Of a DNA stretch of 64,000 nt, positions 1 through 15,952 are shown piece after piece. Positions within the stretch are counted from its first letter, which is position 1; each line of letters opens with the position of its first letter. The position numbers were made by a program, and so were the translations under genes. The notes under the pieces were generated by a model. That model was not told the DNA's origin, searched no databases, and saw only the letters and a list, made by a program, of their open reading frames with translations. Origin of the DNA: an uncultured Gemmatimonadales bacterium (lineage in GTDB: Bacteria; Gemmatimonadota; Gemmatimonadetes; Gemmatimonadales; GWC2-71-9); the NCBI GenBank assembly GCA_947259405.1, contig CAMYLY010000003.1, positions 123,833 through 187,832 of the forward strand. Direction: 5' to 3'.

Positions 1-2685
<2,685 letters not shown>

Positions 2686-2694
2686 GGAGTCACC

Positions 2695-4242
2695 TCAGGC
2701 CAACGGTACCGACTGGCCGGCCTGGACGTAGGCGTGCTCGTGGGACAGCAGGCCGAGTAGCGCGAGCGGTGCGGCAACCATGACGCCAACCCACGGCGTT
2801 GCCACGCCAACCGCCACGAGCACTAGACCGATTCGGAAGTACCACCGGTGGCGGCCCCAGGTCATTTCGTGGGTCGCGAGGCGTGCGTGAGCCGTCGGGT
2901 GACCCATGGTGACTTCACCAAGGACGAACAGCACGTGGAGAGCGCTGGCGGTGGCCAGTGTAAGCACAAGCGCGGGCCCAACGTCCCCATCCGTGCCGGC
3001 GCCGATCAGCAAAAGACTCGCCGAGCCGGCCAGCACCGCCTGGACCAGCAGGTGTGGAGGCAGCAACGTGTTCTGCCAAAGGTCGCGGGCTCTGGCTTGT
3101 GCAAAGAGGTAGGCGGTGTAGACGGCCGTCATCGCGGCCAAGGGAATGCCTGCGATCATGAGCCATTGGTTGAATGCGGTGGTTCCCGTGACCGCCCCGA
3201 AGAAATGCGCCGCGAGCATGGCGGCGTACCCACTGATGATGTAAGCGCCGCGCACCAGCCAGCTGCGCCATTGCGATCGCGTGAAGATGAGATAGAACCG
3301 TGCGGGATGTTCGAGATCCCACAAGAGCACAACGCCTGTCACAGCGAGAAACACACCGCCGACGATGGGAGAGACGAATCGCCATAGCGGCGCGTCCGGT
3401 CCAATCCATCCGAGCAGCACGAGCACGGCCGGTACCAGGTACGCGCCCGCGGCGACGCCTTTGGTCCAGGTGTAAAGGGAAACCCGCCAATCCCAAGGTG
3501 CGGAGTGTGGAACGTCGTAGCTGAGCAGGGCGGAGGCCGACGAGGTACCCGGGTTGGGATGTCCTGAGACCACATGGTGTGAACTTTCCAGCTGCTCGCT
3601 CCACATGAAGAGCCCGCCCTCCGGTCGTTTCGCGGCGATCGGATCGAGTGTCACCTGGTGCGCATCTCTGTAGAACAACTTGGGCCGGGTTGCTTTTTCT
3701 GGGCGACGCACAGTCACGGTGTCACGGTTGATTAGGCGGGACACCGCAGACGTCCCGTCGTGCATGTCGCCGACGAGGATCGCCTGGGTCGGGCAGACGA
3801 CCACACAGGCCGGCTCGAGTCCGATATCCAAACGATGCGCGCAGAAGTTGCACTTCTCGGCCGAGTGGTCGTCCGGATTGATGAAAATCGCATCGTAGGG
3901 GCACGCCGCGATGCAGGCCTTGCATCCAATGCAGATGGACTTGTCGAAGTCTACGATGCCATCGGGCCGCCGGTGCATGGCGGTCGTCGGGCAGGCCTCC
4001 ACACACGGCGGATCCTCGCACTGGTTACATCGTGTGACCTGATACGCCCGGCGCGCGTCAGGAAACACGCCTACGTCCACGTACTTCACGTGCGTGCGGT
4101 TGACCGAGAGGGGGACCTCGTTTTCCGACTTGCACGCCGTAGAGCAAGCGTGACATCCGATGCACCGGCTGTGGTCGATGACCTTGGCCCACTGGGGTGG
4201 AAGGTCAGTTCGCACCGGCGATGCGAGATCGATCACGGGCAA
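2695..4242 (-). CDS. Fused four-cluster [4Fe-4S] ferredoxin subunit (PsrB/DmsB-like) plus NrfD/PsrC-like polytopic membrane anchor
   Basis: 515-aa ORF. The N-terminal ~200 aa carry four Cys groups: CIGCHACSTAC, CNQCEDPPCVEAC, CIGCKACIAACP and CNFCAHR...CVVVCP. The C-terminal ~300 aa are multi-helix hydrophobic (WTKGVAAGAYLVPAVLVLLGW, IISGYAAMLAAHFF, LLVQAVLAGSASLLLIGA). It lies directly upstream of the MopB subunit on the same strand. Confidence 0.85.
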   Translation of the reverse strand: MPVIDLASPVRTDLPPQWAKVIDHSRCIGCHACSTACKSENEVPLSVNRTHVKYVDVGVFPDARRAYQVTRCNQCEDPPCVEACPTTAMHRRPDGIVDFDKSICIGCKACIAACPYDAIFINPDDHSAEKCNFCAHRLDIGLEPACVVVCPTQAILVGDMHDGTSAVSRLINRDTVTVRRPEKATRPKLFYRDAHQVTLDPIAAKRPEGGLFMWSEQLESSHHVVSGHPNPGTSSASALLSYDVPHSAPWDWRVSLYTWTKGVAAGAYLVPAVLVLLGWIGPDAPLWRFVSPIVGGVFLAVTGVVLLWDLEHPARFYLIFTRSQWRSWLVRGAYIISGYAAMLAAHFFGAVTGTTAFNQWLMIAGIPLAAMTAVYTAYLFAQARARDLWQNTLLPPHLLVQAVLAGSASLLLIGAGTDGDVGPALVLTLATASALHVLFVLGEVTMGHPTAHARLATHEMTWGRHRWYFRIGLVLVAVGVATPWVGVMVAAPLALLGLLSHEHAYVQAGQSVPLA

Positions 4243-4255
4243 TTGCTCTCACGCA

Positions 4256-4570
4256 TTAGAGGTCGCAGGTGCGGATGCTACCGAGAATGTGTTGGACTTT
4301 CGGTTCGATGATCCGATAGTACACGTAAGTACCGTCTCGTCGACTCTCCACGACCCCGCGCGATTTCATCGTTGCGAGTTGTTGGGAGACAGCGGCTTGC
4401 GAGGCGCCCGAGTATTCTTGAAGCTCGGTCACGGTCAACTCGCCGTCTTCCAGCGCCTCTAAGAGCCGAAGGCGCAGCGGGTGACCCAGGCACTTGATCA
4501 CATTGGCAGCCCGCTCGAGCACGTCGTCCTGAATGCTCACGGCGCCCCCTGGTGATGTGGTTGGGTTCAT
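4256..4570 (-). CDS. ArsR/SmtB-family winged-helix transcriptional regulator
   Basis: 104 aa. It has the family signature KCLGHPLRLRLLEAL...LTVTELQEYSGASQAAVSQQLATMKSRGVVESRRDGTYVYY. It is the first gene of the molybdoenzyme operon and is divergent from the SulP gene. Confidence 0.85.
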   Translation of the reverse strand: MNPTTSPGGAVSIQDDVLERAANVIKCLGHPLRLRLLEALEDGELTVTELQEYSGASQAAVSQQLATMKSRGVVESRRDGTYVYYRIIEPKVQHILGSIRTCDL

Positions 4571-4597
4571 AAGTCCTCGCTCACAGAGGGACGGATC

Positions 4598-4639
4598 TTG
4601 GGATTATTCAAATATTGCATTATTACTATTTTTGTGCAA
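4598..4639. promoter_or_regulatory. AT-rich divergent promoter/operator region between arsR-like and sulP-like genes
   Basis: This is the only strongly AT-rich tract in the 83-nt spacer. Plus strand: TTGGGA (4598-4603), 17 nt, TATTAC (4621-4626), upstream of the GTG at 4654. Minus strand: TTGCAC (complement of 4634-4639), 17 nt, AATATT (4611-4616), upstream of the ATG at 4570. TATT words recur at 4605, 4613, 4621 and 4627. Hexamer assignment is by eye only. Confidence 0.35.
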
Positions 4640-4653
4640 GGTGAGATCACCAA

Positions 4654-6183
4654 GTGAGTGAGATCAGAGGGATTTCCGGCTCGGACGTCGTGGCTGGGGT
4701 CAGCGTGGCGTTGCTGCTCATTCCGCAATCGATGGCTTACGCCGGATTGGCGGGTGTGCCTGCCGTCCACGGGCTCTATGCTGCGATGCTCCCGCCGCTT
4801 GCGGCGGCGTTCTTCGTTTCGTCGCCGTACTTGCAGACCGGCCCGGTGGCTATGACCGCAGTGCTCTCATTCGGTGCCCTCTCGACGCTGGCCACCCCGT
4901 TGTCCGCGGAGTATGTGGGGCTCGCGGCGTTACTGGCGCTCGTGGTCGGCGTGACGCGCGTGCTGATCGGTATGGCTCGCGCGGGATTCGTGTCGTACCT
5001 GATGTCGCAGCCAGTCCTCACGGGGTTTTCGTCGGCTGCCGCACTACTCATCATCTCGAGTCAGCTTCCTGTTGCGCTCGGGGTCGAGAACGCCCGAGCC
5101 TCCCTACTCCCCGGGGCTTTGCTGGCCTTACTGGAACCGGGCGAATGGTCCACGATGGCGATCGTTCTCACGGGTGGCACGATAGCGGTCGTCGTGTGGG
5201 GTAAGCGTATCCACCAGCTGTTCCCCGGCGTTCTCGTCGCGGTGCTGGCCGGCCTCATCTACTCACTCGTGAGCGGTTATGAGGGTCAAACCGTCGGCAG
5301 CGTGCCGTCGGGCCTTCCACCGTTCTCCATCCGACTGCCATGGGAGCAAGTCCGGCACCTGATCGTTCCGGGAATCGTGATATCGCTCGTCGGGTTCGCC
5401 GAGCCAGCAGCGATTGCCCGGACGATCGCGACGAAACGACGTGAAGTGTGGAATGCGGACCGCGAGTTCGTGAGCCAGGGGGTGGCGAATCTTGCCGCTG
5501 GCCTTTCCGGGGGATTCCCGGTTGGTGGGTCGTTCTCGCGCACCATGGTCAACGTGACCGCTGGTGGGCGGAGCCGCTGGAGCGGGGCGGTCAGCGGCCT
5601 TGCGGTCTTGGCCTTTCTCCCGTTTGCCAACTCGTTGGCGGCCCTTCCACAGGCGGTGTTGGCCGGTATCGTGATCGCGGCGGTGGCGCAGCTTGTTGAC
5701 GTCCGCTCGCTGGTGACGTTGGCGCGCACCAGCCGGTGGCAGGCCGTTGTGGGTCTGGCCACGTTCGCATTGACCCTGGTGCTGGCTCCCCGGATCGACC
5801 TGGGCGTGCTTTTGGGCATCGGCTTGGGGGTGGCCGTGCACCTGTGGCGCGAGCGGCGGGTGGAGGTACTCACGCGTCTCGATGGCGACACGTTATGGCT
5901 CGAGCCGGTCGGCGTCCTCTACTTTGGATCCGCGCCTCGGCTGGAGGATGTGCTTGAGGCTGAGATGGCGGCGCACCCCGAAGCTCAGCGACTTGTCTTG
6001 GACCTACGGCGCGTCGGTCGGCTTGATTACACGAGCGCCATCGTGATCCGGCGTATCGCGACGGCTGTCGAAGAAGCCGGGCTCAGCGTCCGCATTCTGG
6101 CTGGCAAACCGCCCCAGGGGCAGCGCCTCCTGGAGCGGTTGTTGGGACCCGAATCACCATGGCTTGGGGACACACGCGGCTGA
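4654..6183 (+). CDS. SulP-family anion (sulfate) permease with C-terminal STAS domain
   Basis: 509 aa. N-terminus: ISGSDVVAGVSVALLLIPQSMAYAGLAGVPAVHGLYAA (SulP signature). It has many TM helices. The C-terminal soluble ~110 aa (LWLEPVGVLYFGSAPRLEDVL...LVLDLRRVGRLDYTSAIVI) are STAS-like. Confidence 0.85.
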   Translation: MSEIRGISGSDVVAGVSVALLLIPQSMAYAGLAGVPAVHGLYAAMLPPLAAAFFVSSPYLQTGPVAMTAVLSFGALSTLATPLSAEYVGLAALLALVVGVTRVLIGMARAGFVSYLMSQPVLTGFSSAAALLIISSQLPVALGVENARASLLPGALLALLEPGEWSTMAIVLTGGTIAVVVWGKRIHQLFPGVLVAVLAGLIYSLVSGYEGQTVGSVPSGLPPFSIRLPWEQVRHLIVPGIVISLVGFAEPAAIARTIATKRREVWNADREFVSQGVANLAAGLSGGFPVGGSFSRTMVNVTAGGRSRWSGAVSGLAVLAFLPFANSLAALPQAVLAGIVIAAVAQLVDVRSLVTLARTSRWQAVVGLATFALTLVLAPRIDLGVLLGIGLGVAVHLWRERRVEVLTRLDGDTLWLEPVGVLYFGSAPRLEDVLEAEMAAHPEAQRLVLDLRRVGRLDYTSAIVIRRIATAVEEAGLSVRILAGKPPQGQRLLERLLGPESPWLGDTRG

Positions 6184-6311
6184 CTTCTTGCTAAACAATT
6201 CACTTCGAATTCATAAGACGATTAGAGATTTCGGGCGTCTGGACGAGGTCGTACCCCCAACGAGGAGGAAGGGTGGGGACTGGAGCACCGTAAGCCGCTA
6301 CGGTCCAGGCA

Positions 6312-6340
6312 TTTACACCGGTGCAATGTTCTGCTACGAT
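6312..6340 (+). promoter_or_regulatory. Candidate sigma70-type promoter for the glutamate dehydrogenase gene
   Basis: TTTACA (6312-6317), a 17-nt spacer, then TACGAT (6335-6340), about 30 nt upstream of the ATG at 6373. Pattern match by eye only. Confidence 0.35.
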
Positions 6341-6372
6341 GTTCCGTCTTTGGTCACCCCTGCTACCTAACG

Positions 6373-7773
6373 ATGTCAGCAATGCCAGCGAAAAAAACCC
6401 AGAAGAACAAGCCCCGCCTCAAGGCCATCAAGCCCCACTCGGCGGAAGACCTCAATCCCTATCACATCGCGCTCCGCCAGTTCGACAGCGCGGCCGAGTA
6501 TCTGCCGGGCATTCAGAATGGGTTGGCGGAGAACATGAAGCGGCCCGATCGGATGATTCTGGTTGAGTTTCCGATCGAAATGGCCGACGGGTCGGTGCGA
6601 ACCTTTGCCGGATATCGCGTGCTTCACAACCGTGCGCGCGGTCCAGGCAAGGGCGGCATCAGATACCATCCCGGTGTCACGGCGGATGAAGTGCGGGCGT
6701 TGGCGTCCTGGATGACCTGGAAGTGCGCCATCGTCGACATTCCGTTCGGCGGGGCAAAGGGTGGGGTGGCATGCAATCCGAAGGAGCTGACGTCCAGCGA
6801 CGTTCGGAAGATCACGCGGCGCTTCATTGCTGCGCTGGGTGACAACATCGGACCACATACGGACATCCCCGCCCCCGATGTGAACACCAACGCGGGCACT
6901 ATGTCTCGGATTTACGACACGTATCAGATGATGCACGCCGGCGAGAATTGTCTCCCGGTCGTTACAGGCAAGCCCGTCGAGCTCGGTGGCTCGCTGGGAA
7001 GGCGCGAGGCCACTGCCCGCGGCTGTCTTTTTGCGACGCAGCGGGCGCTGGAACGGGGTGTTGTGGAGGGTCTGGACTCCGTCGACGGTGCCACCGTTGT
7101 CATCCAAGGGTTCGGCAACGCCGGGTCCATTGCGGCGCAACTCTTCGCCGAACAGGGATCGAAGATCGTGGCAGTCAGCGATTCGCGTGGCGGCATCTAC
7201 GATCCCAACGGAATCGACGTCGAGGCCGCCATCGAGCACAAGGCCAAGAGAGGATCAGTCGTCGGCTTGGCGGGAACGGAAACGCTCACGAATGAAGAAT
7301 TGCTCGCTGTCGAGTGCGACATTCTCATTCCCGCAGCGCTCGAAAACGCGATTCGGGAGGACAACGTCGACAATATTCGAGCGCGCTTCATTTCAGAGGC
7401 TGCCAACGGTCCCACGACCCCCGGGGCCGAGGATATCTTGTTCAAACGTGGGCTTCCTGTGCTGCCCGACATTCTCGCCAACGCGGGCGGCGTCACGGTG
7501 AGCTACTTCGAATGGGTGCAGAACATCGAAAACGAGCAGTGGGATGTCGAGGAAGTCAACGGTAAGTTGCTCAAGAAGATGCGCTCCGCGACCGACGCCG
7601 TGATCGATACTCAGACGCGCGTCAACGAGAACTTGAAGGAGATCGAGCGGTCGCGTGAACGAGCCGGGCTGCCGGCGAAGAAGCTCACACCGGTGAATCT
7701 GCGTAAGGCGGCCTTCGTCCTGGCGATCGAACGGGTGGCGGACGTCACCCTGGAACGCGGTATCTGGCCGTAG
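6373..7773 (+). CDS. gdh: NAD(P)-dependent glutamate dehydrogenase (Glu/Leu/Phe/Val dehydrogenase family)
   Basis: 466 aa. It has the catalytic Lys-region motif DIPFGGAKGGVACNP and the dinucleotide fold VVIQGFGNAGSIAAQ, and ends TVSYFEWVQN. Confidence 0.9.
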   Translation: MSAMPAKKTQKNKPRLKAIKPHSAEDLNPYHIALRQFDSAAEYLPGIQNGLAENMKRPDRMILVEFPIEMADGSVRTFAGYRVLHNRARGPGKGGIRYHPGVTADEVRALASWMTWKCAIVDIPFGGAKGGVACNPKELTSSDVRKITRRFIAALGDNIGPHTDIPAPDVNTNAGTMSRIYDTYQMMHAGENCLPVVTGKPVELGGSLGRREATARGCLFATQRALERGVVEGLDSVDGATVVIQGFGNAGSIAAQLFAEQGSKIVAVSDSRGGIYDPNGIDVEAAIEHKAKRGSVVGLAGTETLTNEELLAVECDILIPAALENAIREDNVDNIRARFISEAANGPTTPGAEDILFKRGLPVLPDILANAGGVTVSYFEWVQNIENEQWDVEEVNGKLLKKMRSATDAVIDTQTRVNENLKEIERSRERAGLPAKKLTPVNLRKAAFVLAIERVADVTLERGIWP

Positions 7774-7803
7774 CGAGTCCTCTCCGCTCCGGGGCGCGCG
7801 TTT

Positions 7804-8277
7804 CTACTGAACCGTCTCCGCGGCGAAGTTGATCACGTCGGGCTGGACAAGGCGCGCAAAATCCTCGAACGCCAGTTGGATCAACTCCGTGTGCGTGCCG
7901 GCGTTGAACGCAATCACGTCGTCCTTCGTGAGATCTTTGGCGACGTACACCCGCATCCCGTAGAGATTCCCGAACGGCGGCATGGCGCCCGGCTCGCAGT
8001 CGGGGAAGCGTTCGGCGAACTCCCCTTCAGTCGCGAGTTCAACCAGGTCGGCCCCGATCGCGGCACGAAGGACCCCGAGCTCCACGTGCTCCGATGCCGG
8101 CAAGACGGCCATCGCGAGGTTGCGATCGATCTTGAGAATCACCGTCTTGGCCAGTTCTTGACCCGGGATGTGAGCTGACGCGGCCACTTCCTGCGCGGTG
8201 TACGCCGGCGAATGTCGGATCGTCACGTACCGGACGCGGTGCTCATCCAGAAAATTCTTGAGTGTTTTGATCGGCAT
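7804..8277 (-). CDS. YbaK/ProX-like aminoacyl-tRNA deacylase domain protein
   Basis: I trimmed the ORF-track 209-aa ORF to the internal ATG at 8275-8277 (MPIKTLKNFLDEHRVRYVTIRHSPAYTAQEVAASAHIPGQELAKTVILK...). The 52-aa upstream extension is Cys/Pro-rich junk. Fold assignment comes from sequence resemblance to the YbaK/EbsC family. Confidence 0.7.
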   Translation of the reverse strand: MPIKTLKNFLDEHRVRYVTIRHSPAYTAQEVAASAHIPGQELAKTVILKIDRNLAMAVLPASEHVELGVLRAAIGADLVELATEGEFAERFPDCEPGAMPPFGNLYGMRVYVAKDLTKDDVIAFNAGTHTELIQLAFEDFARLVQPDVINFAAETVQ

Positions 8278-8444
8278 AGTGCGCTCCTGGCCGTTGTGTC
8301 GGCAGCCCGTCCCACCAATACAGTCTGACCGGTGAGGTGTGAACCGAGGGTGAAACGACTTCGAATCCGCCACGGGGGGAGAGGCGTTCGCTTCCGAGGG
8401 GCAGCGAAACATGCACATACTGCAATTAATCAATATCTGAGTTG

Positions 8445-8474
8445 TCGAAAAGGGGCACGGGAATCCGTGCCCCT
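8445..8474 (-). terminator. Rho-independent terminator after the DUF4097 gene
   Basis: The minus-strand transcript reads AGGGGCACGG-ATTC-CCGTGCCCCT followed by TTTCGAC, a 9-10 bp GC stem plus a T run. It lies 23 nt after the TAA at 8497-8499. Confidence 0.6.
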
Positions 8475-8496
8475 CCGCTCCTGATAGAACAGGGGG

Positions 8497-9417
8497 TTAA
8501 CGGGCCCTGAGCGTAATGCTGCCGTCGCCCGTTTCCGCGGTGATCTTCGGCCCACCGCCCCGCAAGGTGCCGCGGATCCACCGATTGCGATATTCGCCGT
8601 CAAACTCAGACATCGGGATGACCGCGACCTCCTCGCCCGAGAGATCGATCTCGACACCGAGGGTCCCAATGTCGATCGTGATATCGCCGTCACCGGTCCG
8701 CAGTGTGGTGGCGGCCGCGCTCGTGAGTGTGACAGTGATGTCGCCGTCGCCACTGGACGCGAGCAGCTCGCCCGTCGCCTGGCCCACGTGCACGTCACCG
8801 TCTTGGGTGGTGATCTCGATCCGCGGCGCCGTCAGAGTCTCCACCCAGACGTCCCCGTCATCGGTCTGAAGCACGACCTCCGGGCCATCCACCGCCTCCA
8901 CAGCGATGTCGCCGTCGGAGCTCGCCACGTTCACTCGCCCCGTCAACGCCGCGAGTCGTACGTCGCCATCTTCCGTCGAGACATCGGCATGCACCGCTCT
9001 CGGGACGTCGATCTCCACGGTGACCGTGAAGAACCCATGTTGCCGCCAGTCATTACGATCGAGACGAGGATCTCGAGCCCTGATGTCGACGCGGTCCTGT
9101 GATCCTGTGGCTTCGAACTGCATGCGATCGAAGGCCTCTTGTCCCCAGTCCATGTCCCGAGCCTCGAGATAGACCCTAACGCGAGCGCCGTCGCCAGTGT
9201 GAGAGGTGACGACAATGTCACCGTCTGCGACGTCGACATCGAGTTGCCCGCCCGAGGCCAGCGGGAACTCTCGCTCGAGAATGAGCTCACGTGGCTCCTG
9301 GTGGTCATGGCTCACCGAAAACAGCCCGGGATGGTCTCGCTCGGCCGGTAGCGCCCAAATGCTTAATCCAAGGGCAGTTGCGCCAAAGCTGATGATGGCG
9401 ATCGAAGTGTCTTTCAT
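8497..9417 (-). CDS. Membrane-anchored DUF4097-type (putative adhesin / beta-helix repeat) protein
   Basis: Trimmed to the ATG at 9415-9417 (MKDTSIAIISFGATALGLSIWAL, an N-terminal TM helix). Repeated DGDI/DGDV strands (ADGDIVVTS, EDGDVRLAA, SDGDIAVEA, DDGDVWVET, QDGDVHVGQ, GDGDITVTL, GDGDITIDI, GDGSITLRA) are typical of DUF4097. Confidence 0.7.
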   Translation of the reverse strand: MKDTSIAIISFGATALGLSIWALPAERDHPGLFSVSHDHQEPRELILEREFPLASGGQLDVDVADGDIVVTSHTGDGARVRVYLEARDMDWGQEAFDRMQFEATGSQDRVDIRARDPRLDRNDWRQHGFFTVTVEIDVPRAVHADVSTEDGDVRLAALTGRVNVASSDGDIAVEAVDGPEVVLQTDDGDVWVETLTAPRIEITTQDGDVHVGQATGELLASSGDGDITVTLTSAAATTLRTGDGDITIDIGTLGVEIDLSGEEVAVIPMSEFDGEYRNRWIRGTLRGGGPKITAETGDGSITLRAR

Positions 9418-9470
9418 GATGGCTCCGTGGGGATCTTGGTCAGTTAGATAGCGCCCAGGGCCAGAACGTT

Positions 9471-9500
9471 GAAAGGGGGCCGCGGTTTCCCGCGGCCCCC
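9471..9500 (-). terminator. Rho-independent terminator after the lipoprotein gene
   Basis: The minus-strand transcript reads GGGGGCCGCGG-GAAA-CCGCGGCCCCC followed by TTTC. It lies 24 nt after the stop at 9525-9527. Confidence 0.55.
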
Positions 9501-9524
9501 AAGGACTACACTTGAGCGGACTCC

Positions 9525-10592
9525 CTAGACGTTGAACAGGAAGCCCACCGGGTCGAACAGGTTCTCCCACACGTCGAAGGCATCCTCGACGAAGTCAAAG
9601 AGCTCGCGCAGCACCTGGGCTTCGCGCTCCGACAGTGGTTCACCGTTCGCATTGAGCACCTCGATGCTGGTGAGCGTAAAAGTCAAGGTCGCGAACAGTT
9701 CGCCGTTTCCGAAGACCTGAAGCGTGCCCATCCCGTCTTGGATGCTGCCCGCGATCCGCACTGTATTTTGCCCGTGCGAGACGGACACGTCGACCGTGAT
9801 CGATCCGCCGCTCTCGTTCTCCGCAAAGCTCACGTCGGCACTGACGCTGAAGTCACGCGCATCGACACCGATCGTGTACATGATGTCGACGGTGGTGCCT
9901 CCAATGTTCGTCTGGGTGGCGATAGACAGGTCGAAGTCCGCCACGACCTCGCCGTCCGTGATGAAGCCAACAATGGAGAAGCTGGGCGCGGTCGGTGGCC
10001 CGGCGGCCGACACGAGGTAGTCCACATACGTCACGCCACCAGAGACCACCACCAGCCGCACGGCCGCCGTGGTCTCGGTACTCTCATCGAGCAGCTCGGC
10101 GTGGCCGATCTCGATCAGCGGCTCCACGATCTCTTCCGTCACAGGGTTGACGGCGTACAGCAGGAACCGAATCCCGTTCGCGGGCCCTGTCTGGGTTTCG
10201 TCGACCACGTAGCCCACGCCGGGCTCGAACTTGAGCACCAGGGCTCGATACTGCTGCGGGATGAGCTCGACGGCCGCCGCTGACGCGTACGCCATCTGGA
10301 TTTGCCGGGCGGCAGCTTCCAGGCGCGTCTCGTAGTCGGGTGCAGTCGGACGCGATGCCGCACGCAGGAGCTCCGCGGAGGCCGAGGCTGGAGCGCTCGT
10401 CACGGTGAACTGGTTGCCTAGGGCCGCGAGACTCAAGAAGGCTTCCGTCTCGAACGTGGAATCGATCGCAGCCAGGTCCTGGCTTGTCAGATCGGGATCG
10501 AAGGCCTGTTCGCCGACTCCGAGCGAGTCACCGCAGGCCGCAACGGCGACGGCCAACCCCAGAGCCGCGAACTTCTTGAAACGCTGGATCAT
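9525..10592 (-). CDS. Hypothetical lipoprotein
   Basis: Trimmed to the ATG at 10590-10592, which is preceded by GGGGGA. The N-terminus MIQRFKKFAALGLAVAVAACGDS is a signal peptide with an AVAAC lipobox. I recognise no other family. Confidence 0.6.
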   Translation of the reverse strand: MIQRFKKFAALGLAVAVAACGDSLGVGEQAFDPDLTSQDLAAIDSTFETEAFLSLAALGNQFTVTSAPASASAELLRAASRPTAPDYETRLEAAARQIQMAYASAAAVELIPQQYRALVLKFEPGVGYVVDETQTGPANGIRFLLYAVNPVTEEIVEPLIEIGHAELLDESTETTAAVRLVVVSGGVTYVDYLVSAAGPPTAPSFSIVGFITDGEVVADFDLSIATQTNIGGTTVDIMYTIGVDARDFSVSADVSFAENESGGSITVDVSVSHGQNTVRIAGSIQDGMGTLQVFGNGELFATLTFTLTSIEVLNANGEPLSEREAQVLRELFDFVEDAFDVWENLFDPVGFLFNV

Positions 10593-10675
10593 TGGTCCCC
10601 CAATTGAGTTCATGGGGACAATGTAAGACTGTCGGTAGTGCAGTTCCGTGACGCGGCGCACCGGAGGCTCGTGAC

Positions 10676-11707
10676 CTATTCCCCCCGGGGTCGATTAATG
10701 GAGCGGTAGAGTTCCTGGGCGCGCTCCCGGCTCTCGAGGTCCCCGAAGACCTTCTCACCATCAAACCGGCCGTTCTCGATGAAGACTTCGGAGATCCGCC
10801 GTCCAGTGGTGGGGCTCCCAGCCAGATATACGCGCGGCACGTTCGTCTCGAGGGTATCCGAGTTGAAGGTGGGCCGCCCGGAGTCGACATCGTATTCGAT
10901 CCCGATCCGCTCGAAGAGGTCGAAGTCGGGATGGAACCCGATCATAGCATACACACGGTCGGCCTGGACCTCGACCTTGCTGCCCTCGGCCGTCTGCACC
11001 GAAACATGCGTCGGTGTGATCTGGCACACACGAGCGCCGAGATGGGCGGCGATCTCACCGAAGGCGATTCGGTTCTCGATATCCGGCCTGAGCCAATACT
11101 TGACGGACTTCGTAAACTCCGCCCGTCGGTGCACCAAGGTTACCCGAGCACCAGCTCGGAAGAGCTGAAGTGCAGACTCGACTGCCGAGTTCTTCCCCCC
11201 GATCACCACCACGTCGAGTCCGTAGGCTTCGTGTGCCTCACGGAAGTAATGAGACACGTGCGGAAGGTCTTCGCCCTCGACGCCGAGCGTGTTGGGATGG
11301 TCGAAGTAACCGGTGGCCAGCACGAGTCGGTCGCATGTCCATGTCTCTTGACCGTGCCGCGTTTCGACGGTGCATGCGATGTGGGCGGCGGCGGGTGCCG
11401 CGTCGACCAGGCGCGTGTAGGTCTGGACGCGCAGTTCCTCCGCCCGGGTGACGCCGCGGTAGTACATGAGCGCCTCTTCGCGCGTGGTCTTGGGTCCGGA
11501 GGAGACGATGGGGTGATTGCCGATTTCGAGTCGCTCAGGGGTCGTGAAGAACCGCATACCGATTGGATAGCCGACAATGGAGTTGGCAATCGCACCGCTG
11601 TCGATGACCATGGGATCGAGGCCGCGGCGTTTCGCCGAAATGGCGCACGCAAGGCCAATGGGGCCCGCGCCCACGATGAGTGCGTGTTCGTGTCGGGTGT
11701 CTGGCAT
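10676..11707 (-). CDS. ypdA: YpdA-family FAD/NAD(P)H pyridine-nucleotide disulfide oxidoreductase (putative bacillithiol disulfide reductase)
   Basis: 343 aa. It is collinear with Bacillus YpdA as I remember it: ALIVGAGPIGLACAISA, FFTTPERLEIG, LATGYFDHPN, DVVVIGGKNSAVESAL, GFHPDFDLFERIG, VFIENGRFDG. Confidence 0.8.
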   Translation of the reverse strand: MPDTRHEHALIVGAGPIGLACAISAKRRGLDPMVIDSGAIANSIVGYPIGMRFFTTPERLEIGNHPIVSSGPKTTREEALMYYRGVTRAEELRVQTYTRLVDAAPAAAHIACTVETRHGQETWTCDRLVLATGYFDHPNTLGVEGEDLPHVSHYFREAHEAYGLDVVVIGGKNSAVESALQLFRAGARVTLVHRRAEFTKSVKYWLRPDIENRIAFGEIAAHLGARVCQITPTHVSVQTAEGSKVEVQADRVYAMIGFHPDFDLFERIGIEYDVDSGRPTFNSDTLETNVPRVYLAGSPTTGRRISEVFIENGRFDGEKVFGDLESRERAQELYRSINRPRGE

Positions 11708-11765
11708 GTGTTCGCAGTCTGTATCTGGTGGTCAGCCGTGCGGTTGGCGCATGGCCGCGTGCAAT

Positions 11766-12896
11766 CTAGCGTCCCACCCTCGCTTCCCGGAGGGCGATCA
11801 CGGTTTCGCGCGCCACTCGGCCGAGATTGGTCCGGCCGCGACCGTAGTTGCGCATCAAGACGACCCCGATTTGCGCGTCGGGGTCAAACTGCATAGACGC
11901 ATTGTACCCGGCGACTGAACCCCCGTGTCCTGCGATGCGGTTCCCGGCTTCATCGATCACGATGTTGAAGCCCAGGCCGTAGCCGTTCTGCTCACTTTCC
12001 GGCGTCTGGATCCGCAACATCTCGTCCAAATTGGCCTCGGTGAGGTAGTCTCGAACGCCCACGATGGCCCCGATGAACTTGGCCAAGTCGTAGACGTTGG
12101 CATACACCGCGCCGTTCGGCACCTTGTATCCTCTACCACCGTGTTCGCGGGCAGGAGTCTCGCCGTCGATCGTCCCGTCACGACTCACGGAGTACCCAGC
12201 CGCCAAGTGGCGCTCCAGGTTGGGAGCGGGCCGGAAGCCTGCGGTGGTCATGCCAAGAGGCCTGAAGAACCGCTCGGTGACCAGTACCATGAATGGCTGC
12301 CCAGCTGCTCGGGAGACCGCCAGGCCCATGATCCCGTACCCGATGTTCGAGTACGAGTACTGCGTGCCAGGATCGGTGGTCACGGGCGTCAGAGGGATCG
12401 AGGCCAGGATCTTCTCCTCCCACCGATCCATCGGTCCATCGGCTGCACCTCGCATGGTGGGCTCCCGGACGAGTCCGCCGGTGTGGGTGGCGAGATCGCG
12501 GAACGTGAGCGGGTCCTCGGTTGGGTATCCGGGGAGTTCGGTAATGGCGGGGAGATACCGGGCCACCTGGTCGTCGACGTCCAGTAGACCGTCTTGGACA
12601 AGCACCATCATCATTGTCGCCGTCACGGACTTTGATATCGAACCGACGCGGTAGACCGTGCTATCATCGGCTGGCTCTTGCGTCTCGCGGTTCGCCCACC
12701 CAAACCCCTTGGCCCACACCACGCTGTCGCCGAAGACAACACCTGCGCTGATGCCGCCCACTGCGTCTTCTGACACGTGAGTTTCGAGTAGCGCTTCCAG
12801 TTGTGTGGTGACCGCCTGGAAGGACGTTTCCTGCGCCAGGAGCGCGGAGCCCTGAACCAGAGCTAGGGTAAGAGTAGCGTGGACGAGGTTTCGCAT
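11766..12896 (-). CDS. Secreted serine hydrolase, beta-lactamase/PBP4-like (class C fold)
   Basis: 376 aa. It has a signal peptide (MRNLVHATLTLALVQGSALLAQE), an SxxK motif (GSISKSVTA) and a YxN motif (YSYSNIGYG). Confidence 0.8.
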   Translation of the reverse strand: MRNLVHATLTLALVQGSALLAQETSFQAVTTQLEALLETHVSEDAVGGISAGVVFGDSVVWAKGFGWANRETQEPADDSTVYRVGSISKSVTATMMMVLVQDGLLDVDDQVARYLPAITELPGYPTEDPLTFRDLATHTGGLVREPTMRGAADGPMDRWEEKILASIPLTPVTTDPGTQYSYSNIGYGIMGLAVSRAAGQPFMVLVTERFFRPLGMTTAGFRPAPNLERHLAAGYSVSRDGTIDGETPAREHGGRGYKVPNGAVYANVYDLAKFIGAIVGVRDYLTEANLDEMLRIQTPESEQNGYGLGFNIVIDEAGNRIAGHGGSVAGYNASMQFDPDAQIGVVLMRNYGRGRTNLGRVARETVIALREARVGR

Positions 12897-12996
12897 TAGT
12901 GCAGGCCCAGTTCGGTAGTGCGTTCATCCTAACATCCGGGGTGTTATGCCGTCTAACCAGGTGACCAACGGGATACACTCGAAGTCGGAGCACATC

Positions 12997-13686
12997 ATGA
13001 AGAACTTGATTATTGGTCTCACCGCGATCTTTCTGGTGGCCCCAGCGGTCACTACAGCGCAGGTGAGCGACACGGCGTCGCGGCGGCAGCAGATGCTGGA
13101 GCGCCGCGGCCAAATGAGGGCCGACCGAATGGGGCAGAGAGCTGGGCGGATGGCGCAACGCGGGCTGCGGGTGGACCACCGTCGCGGACCGCGGGGAGTT
13201 CGCAGCTGCCCGGGCGGAGCCGGCAGCTGTGGATTTCTGCCGTCAGCGCTGTTGACCCAGCGCGAGTCGCTAGGACTCGACGCCGCCCAGGTCGAGCAGC
13301 TCGAAGCGCTGCGGGATCAGACGCGCACCGCGCAGGAACAAGCCGTGACCGAGATCCAAGCTCGACGTCAGGCGCTCAATGAGGCGTGGGAGGCGGACGC
13401 TGGTGACCCAGATCTGATTCGCCAGCGCACCCAAGAGCTCCTGGAAGCGGAGCAGCGCGTGGCGCTTGCGAATGCCGACGCGACCGCTCGAGCCCGGGCC
13501 CTCTTGAGTGACGAGCAACGCGGGCGCGTGCAGGGTCGAGCCGACGCCCGCCGTGGTCGGTTGGCGCCGCGTGGTCGGTTGGCGCCGCGTGGTCGGTTCG
13601 ATCGGGGGCGGACCATGCGGGCCCCACGTGGTGGGTCGCGTGGGATGCGTGCCGCGCCGCGGCGAGGGCCGCGTCGCCCGCTCTGA
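12997..13686 (+). CDS. Periplasmic Spy/CpxP-like (LTxxQ-type) protein with Arg-rich tail
   Basis: Trimmed to the ATG at 12997, with GGAG 6 nt upstream. The signal peptide is MKNLIIGLTAIFLVAPAVTTAQ. The body is helical and Gln/Arg/Glu-rich with LLTQRESLGLDAAQVEQL and LLSDEQRGRV motifs. The tail is RGRLAPRGRLAPRGRF. Confidence 0.55.
   Translation: MKNLIIGLTAIFLVAPAVTTAQVSDTASRRQQMLERRGQMRADRMGQRAGRMAQRGLRVDHRRGPRGVRSCPGGAGSCGFLPSALLTQRESLGLDAAQVEQLEALRDQTRTAQEQAVTEIQARRQALNEAWEADAGDPDLIRQRTQELLEAEQRVALANADATARARALLSDEQRGRVQGRADARRGRLAPRGRLAPRGRFDRGRTMRAPRGGSRGMRAAPRRGPRRPL
13552..13598 (+). repeat. Perfect 18-nt tandem repeat (2.6 copies) inside the Spy-like CDS
   Basis: The unit cgtggtcggttggcgccg occurs at 13552-13569 and 13570-13587, with a partial copy at 13588-13598. 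It is in frame and encodes RGRLAP repeats. Confidence 0.85.
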
Positions 13687-13738
13687 ACCGACAGCCGCCC
13701 GGCGCCGAGACGGCCGAGGGTGAAGCCCTTGGCCGTTT

Positions 13739-14317
13739 CTATTTCCACCAATCGTGCACGTGTTCTTCGTCTTCCACCCCCAGAGCGTCTGCCACCCTGC
13801 TGATGTAGTTGAAGTACCCGACCACCTGGACCGCGTCATGGATGGCGGCGTCGTCGAACCCGTGCCCCCGCAGCTCGTCCAAGTCACCCCGCGTCATTTC
13901 ATGCTGCGAGTGCGTGAGCTTTGCTGCCAGCCCGCAGAGCGCGCGATTCGCGGCGGTAAGGTCGGCAGTGTTCCAATCGTTGGCGACCGCGTGAACGAAC
14001 GCGTCTGCCGCGTCTTCGGTGTCGAACTGATCGGCGATCTCGGCACGGAGGTCGTGGGCGTGGGCCAGCGTTCAGTAGCGGCACCCTAACTCGGCGGACG
14101 TCACCGTCGCTAGCAGCTCACGCTGCATGCGAGTCAGAGGCGATCGGCCGAACATCAACGCACCATAGAAATCGATGCTCGTCTTCATCACGCGCGGGTT
14201 GAGGCTCATGATGTGCACGATGTGCCACACGCGACCGGCGCGCTCGATCGCCGCGTCGAACTGCTGTCTCAGGAAGCCGGTGGCTTGATCGACGGATATC
14301 TGGTTGATCCAGGGCAT
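13739..14317 (-). CDS. AhpD/carboxymuconolactone-decarboxylase-family peroxidase-related protein with in-frame TGA (probable selenocysteine, CxxU)
   Basis: ATG at 14315-14317 (MPWINQISVDQATGFLRQQFD...). The ORF-track ORF stops at the TGA at 14072-14074, after ...SAELGCRY. The same frame stays open for 111 more codons to the TAG at 13739-13741. These encode TLAHAHDLRAEIADQFD...LCGLAAKLTHSQHEMTRGDLDELRGHGFDDAAIHDAVQVVGYFNYISRVADALGVEDEEHVHDWWK, which is the conserved C-terminal half of the family. The TGA occupies the second Cys position of C-x-x-C-x-x-x-H. Confidence 0.6.
14035..14054 (-). promoter_or_regulatory. Weak candidate bacterial SECIS hairpin downstream of the in-frame UGA
   Basis: The mRNA reads 5'-CGACCUC CGUGCC GAGAUCG-3'. 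That gives a 7-pair stem with one C/A mismatch and a 6-nt loop containing GU. The stem begins 18 nt after the UGA. Found by eye and not folded. Confidence 0.25.
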
Positions 14318-14476
14318 GGGCAGATCACGGTAGGGTCCGAGAGACGGTATCCGCTGGCTCGGACGGCAACAAGCCCCGGAACCAGACTTTCGCGGGCCGA
14401 ACCGATCCCGATGTGCAAACCGGAGCCGTTCATTCGTCACTCTTGGTGAAGGCACACGAAAACCAAGGAGCGAACA

Positions 14477-15952
14477 ATGCTTCCGACTTATCGCAACGCG
14501 TTACTGGGTACGATCTTAGGGGTCCTCGGACTCCTGGCGACCACGGCGGACGACCATGAGCCGCCGAAGCCCCCGTCAGACGATTCAATCGTGAAGATCG
14601 ATTCCGCCTATCAATCCACGGCGGCGGATCGTCAATCGGTGATGATCACGGTCTACAATCAGAACTTCGGTCTGGTCCGAGAGGTCCGCGACATCAGGTT
14701 CACTCGTGGGACGGCCGCGCTGGAGTTTCGTGATGTCGCGCAGAACGTGCAGCCCGAAACGGTGCACATCCGCCCCCTTCGAGGCGGCCTTCGCGTGCTC
14801 GAGCAGAACTACCAGTTCGACCTGCTGAACCCGCAGAAGCTCCTCGAGAAGTACGTGGGCCGGACCGTGACCGTGTATCGGTACAACTCCGATACCGGAC
14901 AGGACGAACCGTATCAGGCCGAGGTCTTGTCGGTGAACGGCGGGCCGATCCTCAAGATCGGCGATGAAATCACCTTCAATTTTCCGGGGCGCTTTACGTT
15001 CCCCGAAATTCCAGACAACCTGATTGCGAAGCCCACCCTCATGTGGACGCTCAGCAGCGATCGCCCGCGTCACGATCTCGAGGTCTCGTACCTCACGAAC
15101 AACCTCAACTGGAAATCGGATTACGTCTTCGTGATCAACGACGACGACACGCGCGGCGATCTCACCGGTTGGGTGACGCTCACGAACCAGTCCGGGGCCA
15201 CGTACGAAAACGCGCGTCTCAAGCTGGTAGCCGGCGACGTGCAGCGTGTGACGCCCGATCCGGCTGGCCGCATGCGTATGGAGGCACAGCGTGCGATGGC
15301 CGCCGATGCTGTGTCACAGTTTTCTGAAGAGAGCTTCTTCGAGTATCACCTGTACACGCTCGACCGGCCCACCACGCTGCTCCAGAACGAGCAAAAGCAA
15401 GTAACGCTGCTCGAAGGCAACGGGATTGGTGTCGACAAGAAGCTCATCTTCTACGGCGCGGCGTACTACTATCGTGGCTCATATGGTGAAGTCGTGTCGA
15501 ACCAGAAGGTCGGCGTCTTCCTCGACTTCCAGAACTCACAGAACAACCGGCTCGGTGTGCCACTTCCGAAGGGTATCGTGCGGGTGTACAAGGCGGACCC
15601 AACCGGCGCGCAGCAGTTCATCGGCGAAGATCGGATCGATCACACGCCCAAGGACGAGCGCGTGCGCATCAAGATGGGCGAGGCGTTCGACGTGGTGGGC
15701 GACCGGCGCCAAATGGAATACAAGGTCATCTCCGGGTGCGTGTCCGAGAGCGCGTGGGAAGTGACCCTGCGCAATCACAAGGACGACGACGCCGAAGTTG
15801 AAGTGATCGAACCGATCGGTGGCGACTGGGACATGATCGGCTCGAGCCACGAATGGCAGAAGCTGGATGCCCATACGTTCAAGTACGTGGTCGACGTGCC
15901 CGAGGATGGGGAGACGAAGATCAACTATCGGGTGCGAGTGAGATGGTGCTAG
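14477..15952 (+). CDS. DUF4139-family secreted protein
   Basis: 491 aa with an N-terminal signal/anchor (ALLGTILGVLGLLATTA). Its length and the motifs ITVYNQNFGLVREVR and LTGWVTLTNQSG resemble DUF4139 (MuiA-like) proteins. Function is unknown. Confidence 0.65.
   Translation: MLPTYRNALLGTILGVLGLLATTADDHEPPKPPSDDSIVKIDSAYQSTAADRQSVMITVYNQNFGLVREVRDIRFTRGTAALEFRDVAQNVQPETVHIRPLRGGLRVLEQNYQFDLLNPQKLLEKYVGRTVTVYRYNSDTGQDEPYQAEVLSVNGGPILKIGDEITFNFPGRFTFPEIPDNLIAKPTLMWTLSSDRPRHDLEVSYLTNNLNWKSDYVFVINDDDTRGDLTGWVTLTNQSGATYENARLKLVAGDVQRVTPDPAGRMRMEAQRAMAADAVSQFSEESFFEYHLYTLDRPTTLLQNEQKQVTLLEGNGIGVDKKLIFYGAAYYYRGSYGEVVSNQKVGVFLDFQNSQNNRLGVPLPKGIVRVYKADPTGAQQFIGEDRIDHTPKDERVRIKMGEAFDVVGDRRQMEYKVISGCVSESAWEVTLRNHKDDDAEVEVIEPIGGDWDMIGSSHEWQKLDAHTFKYVVDVPEDGETKINYRVRVRWC

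Follow-up and report, generated by a model that had tools for sequence, protein, structure and literature searches.

The window, by which we mean the whole 64,000-nucleotide stretch of DNA analysed here, carries on its minus strand, at 13739-14317, a single frame of 192 codons whose sole interruption, as seen in the translation, is a TGA at codon 82 (14072-14074). The frame has the extent of a complete AhpD-like (TIGR01926) gene, opening with an ATG at 14315-14317 and closing with a TAG at 13739-13741, and its in-frame TGA, which we read as selenocysteine (Sec), falls where the AhpD C-x-x-C motif has its second Cys. The residues around it are C-R-Y-TGA-T-L-A-H, the preceding stretch ending in ...SAELGCRY. 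What a naive gene caller produces here is an artefactual 127-aa ORF (14072-14455, minus strand) running from a GTG at 14455 to the TGA; homologues start at MPWI, which corresponds to the ATG at 14317 and is common to them (ATG in that column in 141 of 157). A 111-aa ORF on the plus strand (13754-14089) lies as an antisense shadow over the conserved C-terminal half and is spurious, because the strand opposite to it carries conserved coding sequence that is under purifying selection. The original prediction had described this layout, with a 127-aa ORF ending at the TGA, a frame continuing to the TAG and a full product of 192 aa from the ATG at 14317, and translation bore it out; the antisense ORF that it dismissed as spurious is present in the ORF list. 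Its count of 111 sense codons after the TGA is to be corrected to 110 (192 - 82 = 110). When the entire window was scanned for same-frame coding segments split by one TGA, this gene was the only real case, three other candidates being adjacent genes that share a frame. A TGA-interrupted pattern of this kind is far beyond chance.

The genes next to it are unrelated: a divergent gene for a DUF4139 protein, a convergent gene for a signal-peptide protein without a Pfam match, and genes for a beta-lactamase-family protein and a Pyr_redox_3 oxidoreductase. Positions 2695-15952 of the window are collinear with positions 5-15016 of a contig (L007) from the Gemmatimonadota MAG AB_69_Bin_222, at 66-83% amino-acid identity, and from this collinearity we take the gene to be a resident orthologue in a Gemmatimonadota-like genome. 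Between its DUF4139 and AhpD-like genes the L007 contig carries an additional gene-sized segment (about 3246-4073), which is absent from the window.

For family searches, a Cys was placed at the TGA position of the conceptual product. It matched NCBIfam TIGR01926 (peroxidase-related, AhpD-like, COG2128) at 122.7 bits against a cutoff of 81.8, over residues 2-183, that is on both sides of the TGA, and profile positions 1-175 of 178, and Pfam PF02627 CMD (carboxymuconolactone decarboxylase / AhpD superfamily) at 39.2 bits against a gathering threshold of 23. The best matches among solved structures were 2OYO, 6K40 (Deinococcus radiodurans AhpD), 2PFX, 2PRR and 3C1L, with E-values of 1e-16 to 1e-20 (about 1e-20 for 2OYO, 6K40 and 2PFX), and in all five the TGA column is Cys, with C-x-Y-C-x-x-x-H in register. 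Thus, two claims made at the outset hold: the codons after the TGA are homologous to the CMD/AhpD family, as both family models and the PDB relatives indicate, and the TGA occupies the second Cys of C-x-x-C-x-x-x-H, where it aligns with Cys in the PDB homologues and in the database proteins P0058 and P0076.

The relay constellation of AhpD, Glu-x11-Cys-x-[His/Tyr]-Cys/Sec-x3-His, is found in the window protein as E67, C79, Y81, U82 and H86; across the family alignment, E67, C79, Y81 and H86 do not vary. On the minus strand, the codon of the proton-relay Glu67 lies at 14117-14119, 12 residues before Cys79; that of Cys79, the first residue of the CxxU pair, is the TGC at 14081-14083 (TGC in 117 sequences and TGT in 40); and that of the proton-relay His86, 4 residues after Sec82, lies at 14060-14062. 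The spacing of Glu67-Cys79-Tyr81-Sec82-His86 is identical to that of the relays described for M. tuberculosis AhpD (Glu118, Cys130, His132, Cys133, His137) and PA0269 (Glu36, Cys48, Tyr50, Cys51, His55) (PMC3141380). The x residue of C-x-Y-U varies in the Sec clade, being His in 59, Phe in 40 and Arg in 16 of 151 sequences.

A protein search returned 117 matches, most of which are ~110 aa long and extend over no more than 42-56% of the query. These half-protein entries either end exactly at ...C-x-Y (P0045, P0066, P0071) or start just past it with MQAHAHDL..., because gene callers split the gene at the in-frame stop; about 100 database entries are half-proteins of this kind, and two others (P0010, P0011) lack the stretch around the TGA, as though the gene model had spliced it out. 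At the nucleotide level, GTDB genomes and metagenomes were scanned with the family alignment and yielded 160 full-length loci at 57-80% identity; a scan of genome contigs with the single protein as query had returned no relative, whereas the alignment query succeeded. The nearest loci belong to Gemmatimonadota MAGs (79-80%); next come Anaerolineae/Chloroflexota, Acidobacteriota, Actinomycetota and others.

Codons at the Sec column were counted over these 160 loci plus six fetched earlier (n = 166). TGA is present in 162 of the 166, from at least four phyla, and the syntenic Gemmatimonadota orthologue L007 keeps it. A strain-specific nonsense mutation, one of the objections raised beforehand, is thereby ruled out. 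The other four are L001-L003, with TGG (codon ~10244-10246 in L001), and L005 (10001-10555), with TCG. L001-L003 are three contigs of identical gene order carrying the same gene, which encodes P0006, a real Trp form present on 12 contigs, and the Ser form of L005 is P0035. Outside the 166, locus L170 (367-963) has a real GGA/Gly at the column (P0005). The TGG/Trp and GGA/Gly sense codons each differ from TGA by a single base. Cys at the Sec column is not seen in any homologue above about 57% identity; true Cys forms are found only at 41% identity or below (P0058, P0076). At 37-46% identity there is a Ser clade with C-x-Y-S for C-x-Y-U (P0063, P0064, P0073, P0074), in two members of which, P0063 and P0064, the following His is also lost, which suggests that this Ser branch is no longer redox-active. 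The Sec form itself is a coherent clade across several phyla.

Downstream of the TGA, at 14035-14054 on the minus strand and starting 17 nt after the UGA, lies a SECIS-type hairpin, predicted from covariation, RNAalifold and frozen synonymous sites. In the window it consists of a 5' arm CGACCUC (14054-14048), a loop CGUGCC (14047-14042) and a 3' arm GAGAUCG (14041-14035). The family consensus is (C)GACCUC-CGKGNN-GAGGUC(G), at the same distance from the UGA: almost every sequence with the TGA encodes D-L-R-x-E-V as GAC CTC CGK GNN GAG GTC, a perfect inverted repeat that, together with the flanking C and G, gives a 7-bp helix closed by a 6-nt loop. Its statistics were computed on an ungapped alignment of 149 distinct sequences. 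Standard pairs fill 97.7% of cells, as compared with 23-47% after a shift of the 3' partner by 1-3 columns, and none of 500 column shuffles reaches the observed percentage paired, the number of cells with changes on both sides or the covariation score; the pair-count and pair-type measures are not distinguishing, since 482 of 500 shuffles reach them. Pair 33-46, for example, is C-G in 123 sequences, U-A in 18, U-G in 6 and C.A in 1, the window, and in its U-A state a synonymous change from GAC to GAT goes together with replacement of Val by Ile. The helix is also recovered by RNAalifold, which was given no hint of it, and loop positions C37, G38 and G40 are invariant.

Codon usage at the hairpin points in the same direction. 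Frozen synonymous sites occur only at hairpin codons 90-94 and nowhere else in the gene: the hairpin Leu is CTC in 156 of 157 sequences (1.04 effective codons, whereas the remaining conserved Leu positions have 2.9-4.6), the Glu is GAG in all 157, the Arg is CGG or CGT only, and the variable loop codon always begins with G. From this pattern, we conclude that the hairpin is under RNA-level selection, and indeed that it is so constrained that it, as the codons read, dictates the peptide D-L-R-x-E-V. The conserved structure that had been anticipated downstream of the TGA is thus present in the family as a covarying 7-bp hairpin. It is visible only comparatively: the fold of the single sequence, over 76 nt around the UGA, is no better than shuffles (z -0.44), and an Rfam scan of 13700-14400 gave no relevant match. 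The UGA-to-loop spacing of ~24 nt should also lie within the range of the bSECISearch model. Among the sense-codon relatives, the hairpin is kept in L001 and L170 and lost in L005.

The window copy of the hairpin carries a C14051.A14038 mismatch (GACCUC...GAGAUC), the only C.A among the 149 sequences, which is due to one G-to-A change that also turns Val into Ile. In isolation, the window hairpin is predicted at -3.8 kcal/mol, as compared with a family median of -9.0 and with -10.5 if A14038 is reverted to G, so that the mismatch costs about 6.7 kcal/mol. In a wider context the MFE structure still includes the hairpin, its helix interrupted by a 1x1 internal loop, and the helix has an ensemble probability of about 0.3, the family median being about 0.97. 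A few relatives have comparably weak hairpins; the L007 orthologue has the TGA together with an intact one. According to these folding models the hairpin of the window copy is weakened, not lost, and Sec insertion may, given the mismatch, be less efficient here than in relatives.

Selection was assessed against eight close relatives. The pN/pS ratio is 0.11-0.32 upstream of the TGA and 0.27-0.52 downstream of it, and values this low on both sides indicate that both halves are under purifying selection as protein. Taken together, the continuous frame, the family models, the conservation of UGA across several phyla at the catalytic column and the conserved hairpin lead us to conclude that 13739-14317 on the minus strand is very probably one gene, encoding a 192-residue AhpD-like thiol/selenol oxidoreductase in which UGA-82 is decoded as Sec.

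By analogy with the established bacterial mechanism, the pathway of which is summarised in PMC13326102, the hairpin would recruit SelB.GTP.Sec-tRNA(Sec) to the ribosome stalled at the UGA, and Sec would be inserted there in place of termination. Sec82 would then replace the second Cys of the relay Glu67-Cys79-Tyr81-Sec82-His86, and the Cys79/Sec82 pair would, by extension from the AhpD literature (PMC3141380), cycle between a reduced selenol/thiol and a selenenylsulfide. Reducing equivalents would be passed to a peroxiredoxin-type or other oxidised partner. We assume that Sec82 is the attacking nucleophile and Cys79 the resolving residue.

The machinery for Sec insertion was looked for as well. 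None of selA, selB, selD and tRNA-Sec is found in the window, which holds no tRNA at all, and 64 kb is too short for this absence to be informative. When E. coli SelA, SelB and SelD served as tblastn queries on the window plus about 1.6 Mb of flanks, the window again gave no match. The only linked hint of Sec machinery comes from an Anaerolinea MAG (L079), which encodes at 3-1000 (plus strand), ~6 kb upstream of the AhpD-like selenoprotein gene, a SelD homologue that shares 39% identity with E. coli SelD and is truncated by the contig end; a 'SelB' match in L041 proved to be EF-Tu. From the gene and its relatives, we regard the organism as a probable selenium user.

Could the family be a true selenoprotein family and the window copy nevertheless be decaying? 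The SECIS would then be damaged or the Sec machinery lost, translation would stop at codon 82, and the gene would be an early pseudogene. The C14051.A14038 mismatch, unique among 149 and costly as described above, fits such a course, as does the lack of Sec machinery in the 64-kb window, and the C-terminal tail reads EDEEHVHDWWK instead of the family's usual EPExFIRPWG. Against this, both halves are intact, without a frameshift or a second stop, all relay residues are kept, the downstream pN/pS stays below 0.52, and the hairpin still forms in the MFE structure, with several relatives comparably weak. The tail, moreover, recurs as an EDEDHVRDWW-type sequence in the independent sequence P0013 and is therefore a lineage variant, not a sign of decay. 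We consider decay of the window copy unlikely.

A smaller probability still attaches to the reading in which the UGA is not decoded as Sec at all, either because it is a real stop, leaving an 81-residue fragment, perhaps along with a C-terminal piece that is initiated on its own, or because it is suppressed by tRNA-Trp or near-cognate leakage. The rare relatives with Trp (L001-L003), Gly (L170) or Ser (L005) lend this some substance, since they imply that the protein can exist with a non-redox residue at the Sec column. Yet no start codon follows directly on the window TGA (the sequence continues ACG CTG GCC...), distant homologues and solved structures have Cys in the column, and a long-conserved stop at a catalytic Cys column, when a covarying hairpin and frozen synonymous sites come after it, is characteristic of SelB-dependent recoding rather than of termination or of passive leakage. 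We find this reading quite improbable.

That TGA is a sense codon (Trp under code 4 or Gly under code 25), or that it stems from a sequencing or assembly error, we hold to be a negligible prospect: several full-length database entries do print W at the Sec column (P0001-P0004 and others), but TGA terminates 22 of the 39 high-confidence window ORFs, many of them longer than 400 aa, which excludes a TGA-sense genetic code, the W of P0001 is a TGA translated under code 4 with the terminal TGA read through too, and the same TGA recurs in 162 independent assemblies. In P0001 the readthrough of the true terminal TGA has given the protein a false C-terminal extension. The idea that the W or G in all full-length entries reflects code-4/25 readthrough is true for P0001 and false for P0006 (TGG) and P0005 (GGA).

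With decoding of UGA-82 as Sec as the preferred reading, a more speculative extension may be mentioned. The escapes seen in the Sec clade lead to Trp, Gly or Ser and never to Cys. Conceivably, Cys is unable to replace Sec in the chemistry of this enzyme, and the window copy is a natural low-efficiency or conditionally decoded variant; we give this only a slim chance. If the window copy were conditionally decoded, Sec insertion could be tuned, e.g. by selenium supply.

That AhpD-like proteins are an established bacterial selenoprotein family, as the original prediction had it, is supported by three sources. The Sargasso Sea survey introduced CxxU proteins of this type (COG2128) as a new selenoprotein family and counted 27 sequences (Zhang, Fomenko and Gladyshev 2005, PMC1088965); the GOS survey lists 'AhpD-like 1' as fourth in abundance, with 299 sequences (PMC2398784); and a 2026 review places the AhpD-like selenoprotein family under TIGR01926 (PMC13188914). 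The window gene resembles the family of PMC1088965 in passing TIGR01926, in having CxxU at the same column with a single Sec, in the SECIS-type hairpin with a G-containing loop directly downstream, and in being a stand-alone protein of ~190 aa. Nothing essential differs, the window copy being distinguished by its Gemmatimonadota-like origin and its unique C.A mismatch. Gemmatimonadota are not named in the main texts of the selenoprotein papers cited here, and a search for literature on Sec use in Gemmatimonadota found nothing useful.

Four further comparisons place the window gene more precisely. Firstly, NCBIfam NF041238 (AhpD_rel_CFYUT (seleno)protein) corresponds to 'hypothetical protein 1' in the Sargasso Sea survey (PMC13188914); it shares the local motif C-[F/H/R]-Y-U-T with the window clade and has a homologous domain. 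The window protein is not a member, because it matches only the C-terminal part, at positions 215-339 of a profile of 357, and scores 61 bits, below the cutoff of 175. Secondly, the Cys-form proteins 2OYO, 2PFX, 2PRR, 3C1L and 6K40 have the same length, fold family and E...C-x-Y-C-x3-H as the window protein. They differ from it in having Cys for the UGA and in being without the hairpin-encoding D-L-R-x-E-V, with e.g. SHGAALREF instead. Thirdly, the proton relay of M. tuberculosis AhpD (TIGR00777), an adaptor that re-reduces AhpC, maps onto the window protein (PMC3141380). The latter has Tyr for His at the middle position, as in PA0269, there is no ahpC near the window gene, and its score against TIGR00777, 18.3 bits versus a cutoff of 191.95, means that it is not a member. 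Finally, the window hairpin is unrelated in sequence to the SECIS of E. coli fdhF and has no Rfam match. The fdhF element, archetypal for Sec insertion in bacteria, is likewise a hairpin within the coding sequence that lies just 3' of the UGA and depends on G-containing positions in its loop; the window stem is shorter than that of fdhF (7 bp, with a 6-nt loop) and specific to its own protein family.

As the CxxU AhpD-like family has been known since 2005, the window gene amounts to an annotation fix, not a discovery. It leaves the knowledge of selenoprotein biology unchanged and will not surprise the specialist; its value lies in annotation correction. Standard callers split the gene into fragments of 81-127 aa and ~110 aa or apply the wrong genetic code, and reading the UGA as Sec would restore one intact antioxidant-type enzyme. 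New here are the Gemmatimonadota-like lineage, a SECIS consensus defined precisely for this family, the observation that escapes from Sec, rare in this clade, lead to Trp, Gly or Ser but not to Cys, and the weakened hairpin of the window copy. The hairpin consensus 17 nt after the UGA could serve for bulk annotation repair.

The AhpD-like gene is a stand-alone unit. Clustering of the neighbours at about 155 loci revealed no conserved partner and no peroxiredoxin, the largest cluster being generic ABC ATPases (14 of the about 155 loci), and with no conserved neighbour the genomic context does not identify a redox partner. In the window, a Pyr_redox_3 pyridine-nucleotide-disulphide oxidoreductase is encoded two genes downstream on the same strand (10676-11707, minus). 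This gene also lies near the homologue in L007 and L021 and not in the other loci, and its protein is a possible lineage-specific reductant for the CxxU protein. Near the Trp-variant homologue of L001, positions 12605-15513 encode a peroxiredoxin (AhpC-TSA/Redoxin), a second CMD-family protein and a hydrolase-OsmC fusion; this antioxidant-type gene cluster is not seen around the Sec forms.

Directly after the TAG, a second hairpin can be drawn at 13710-13736 on the minus strand (10 bp with one mismatch, -21.2 kcal/mol, z -1.41). It is not clearly more stable than shuffles, has no T-run and is not called by the terminator scan; on the fold, it might, tentatively, be a terminator shared by the convergent genes. 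A terminator-like match inside the gene (14160-14178) was dismissed as a chance match. The convergent ORF (12946-13686, plus strand) is overlapped by a 205-aa ORF on the minus strand (13270-13887); GC3 is equally high in the two, and either may be the real gene. The product of the convergent ORF, 246 aa long and without a Pfam match, begins with a sequence resembling a signal peptide and continues in a body rich in Arg and Gln, in which a short tandem repeat lies close to the C-terminus.
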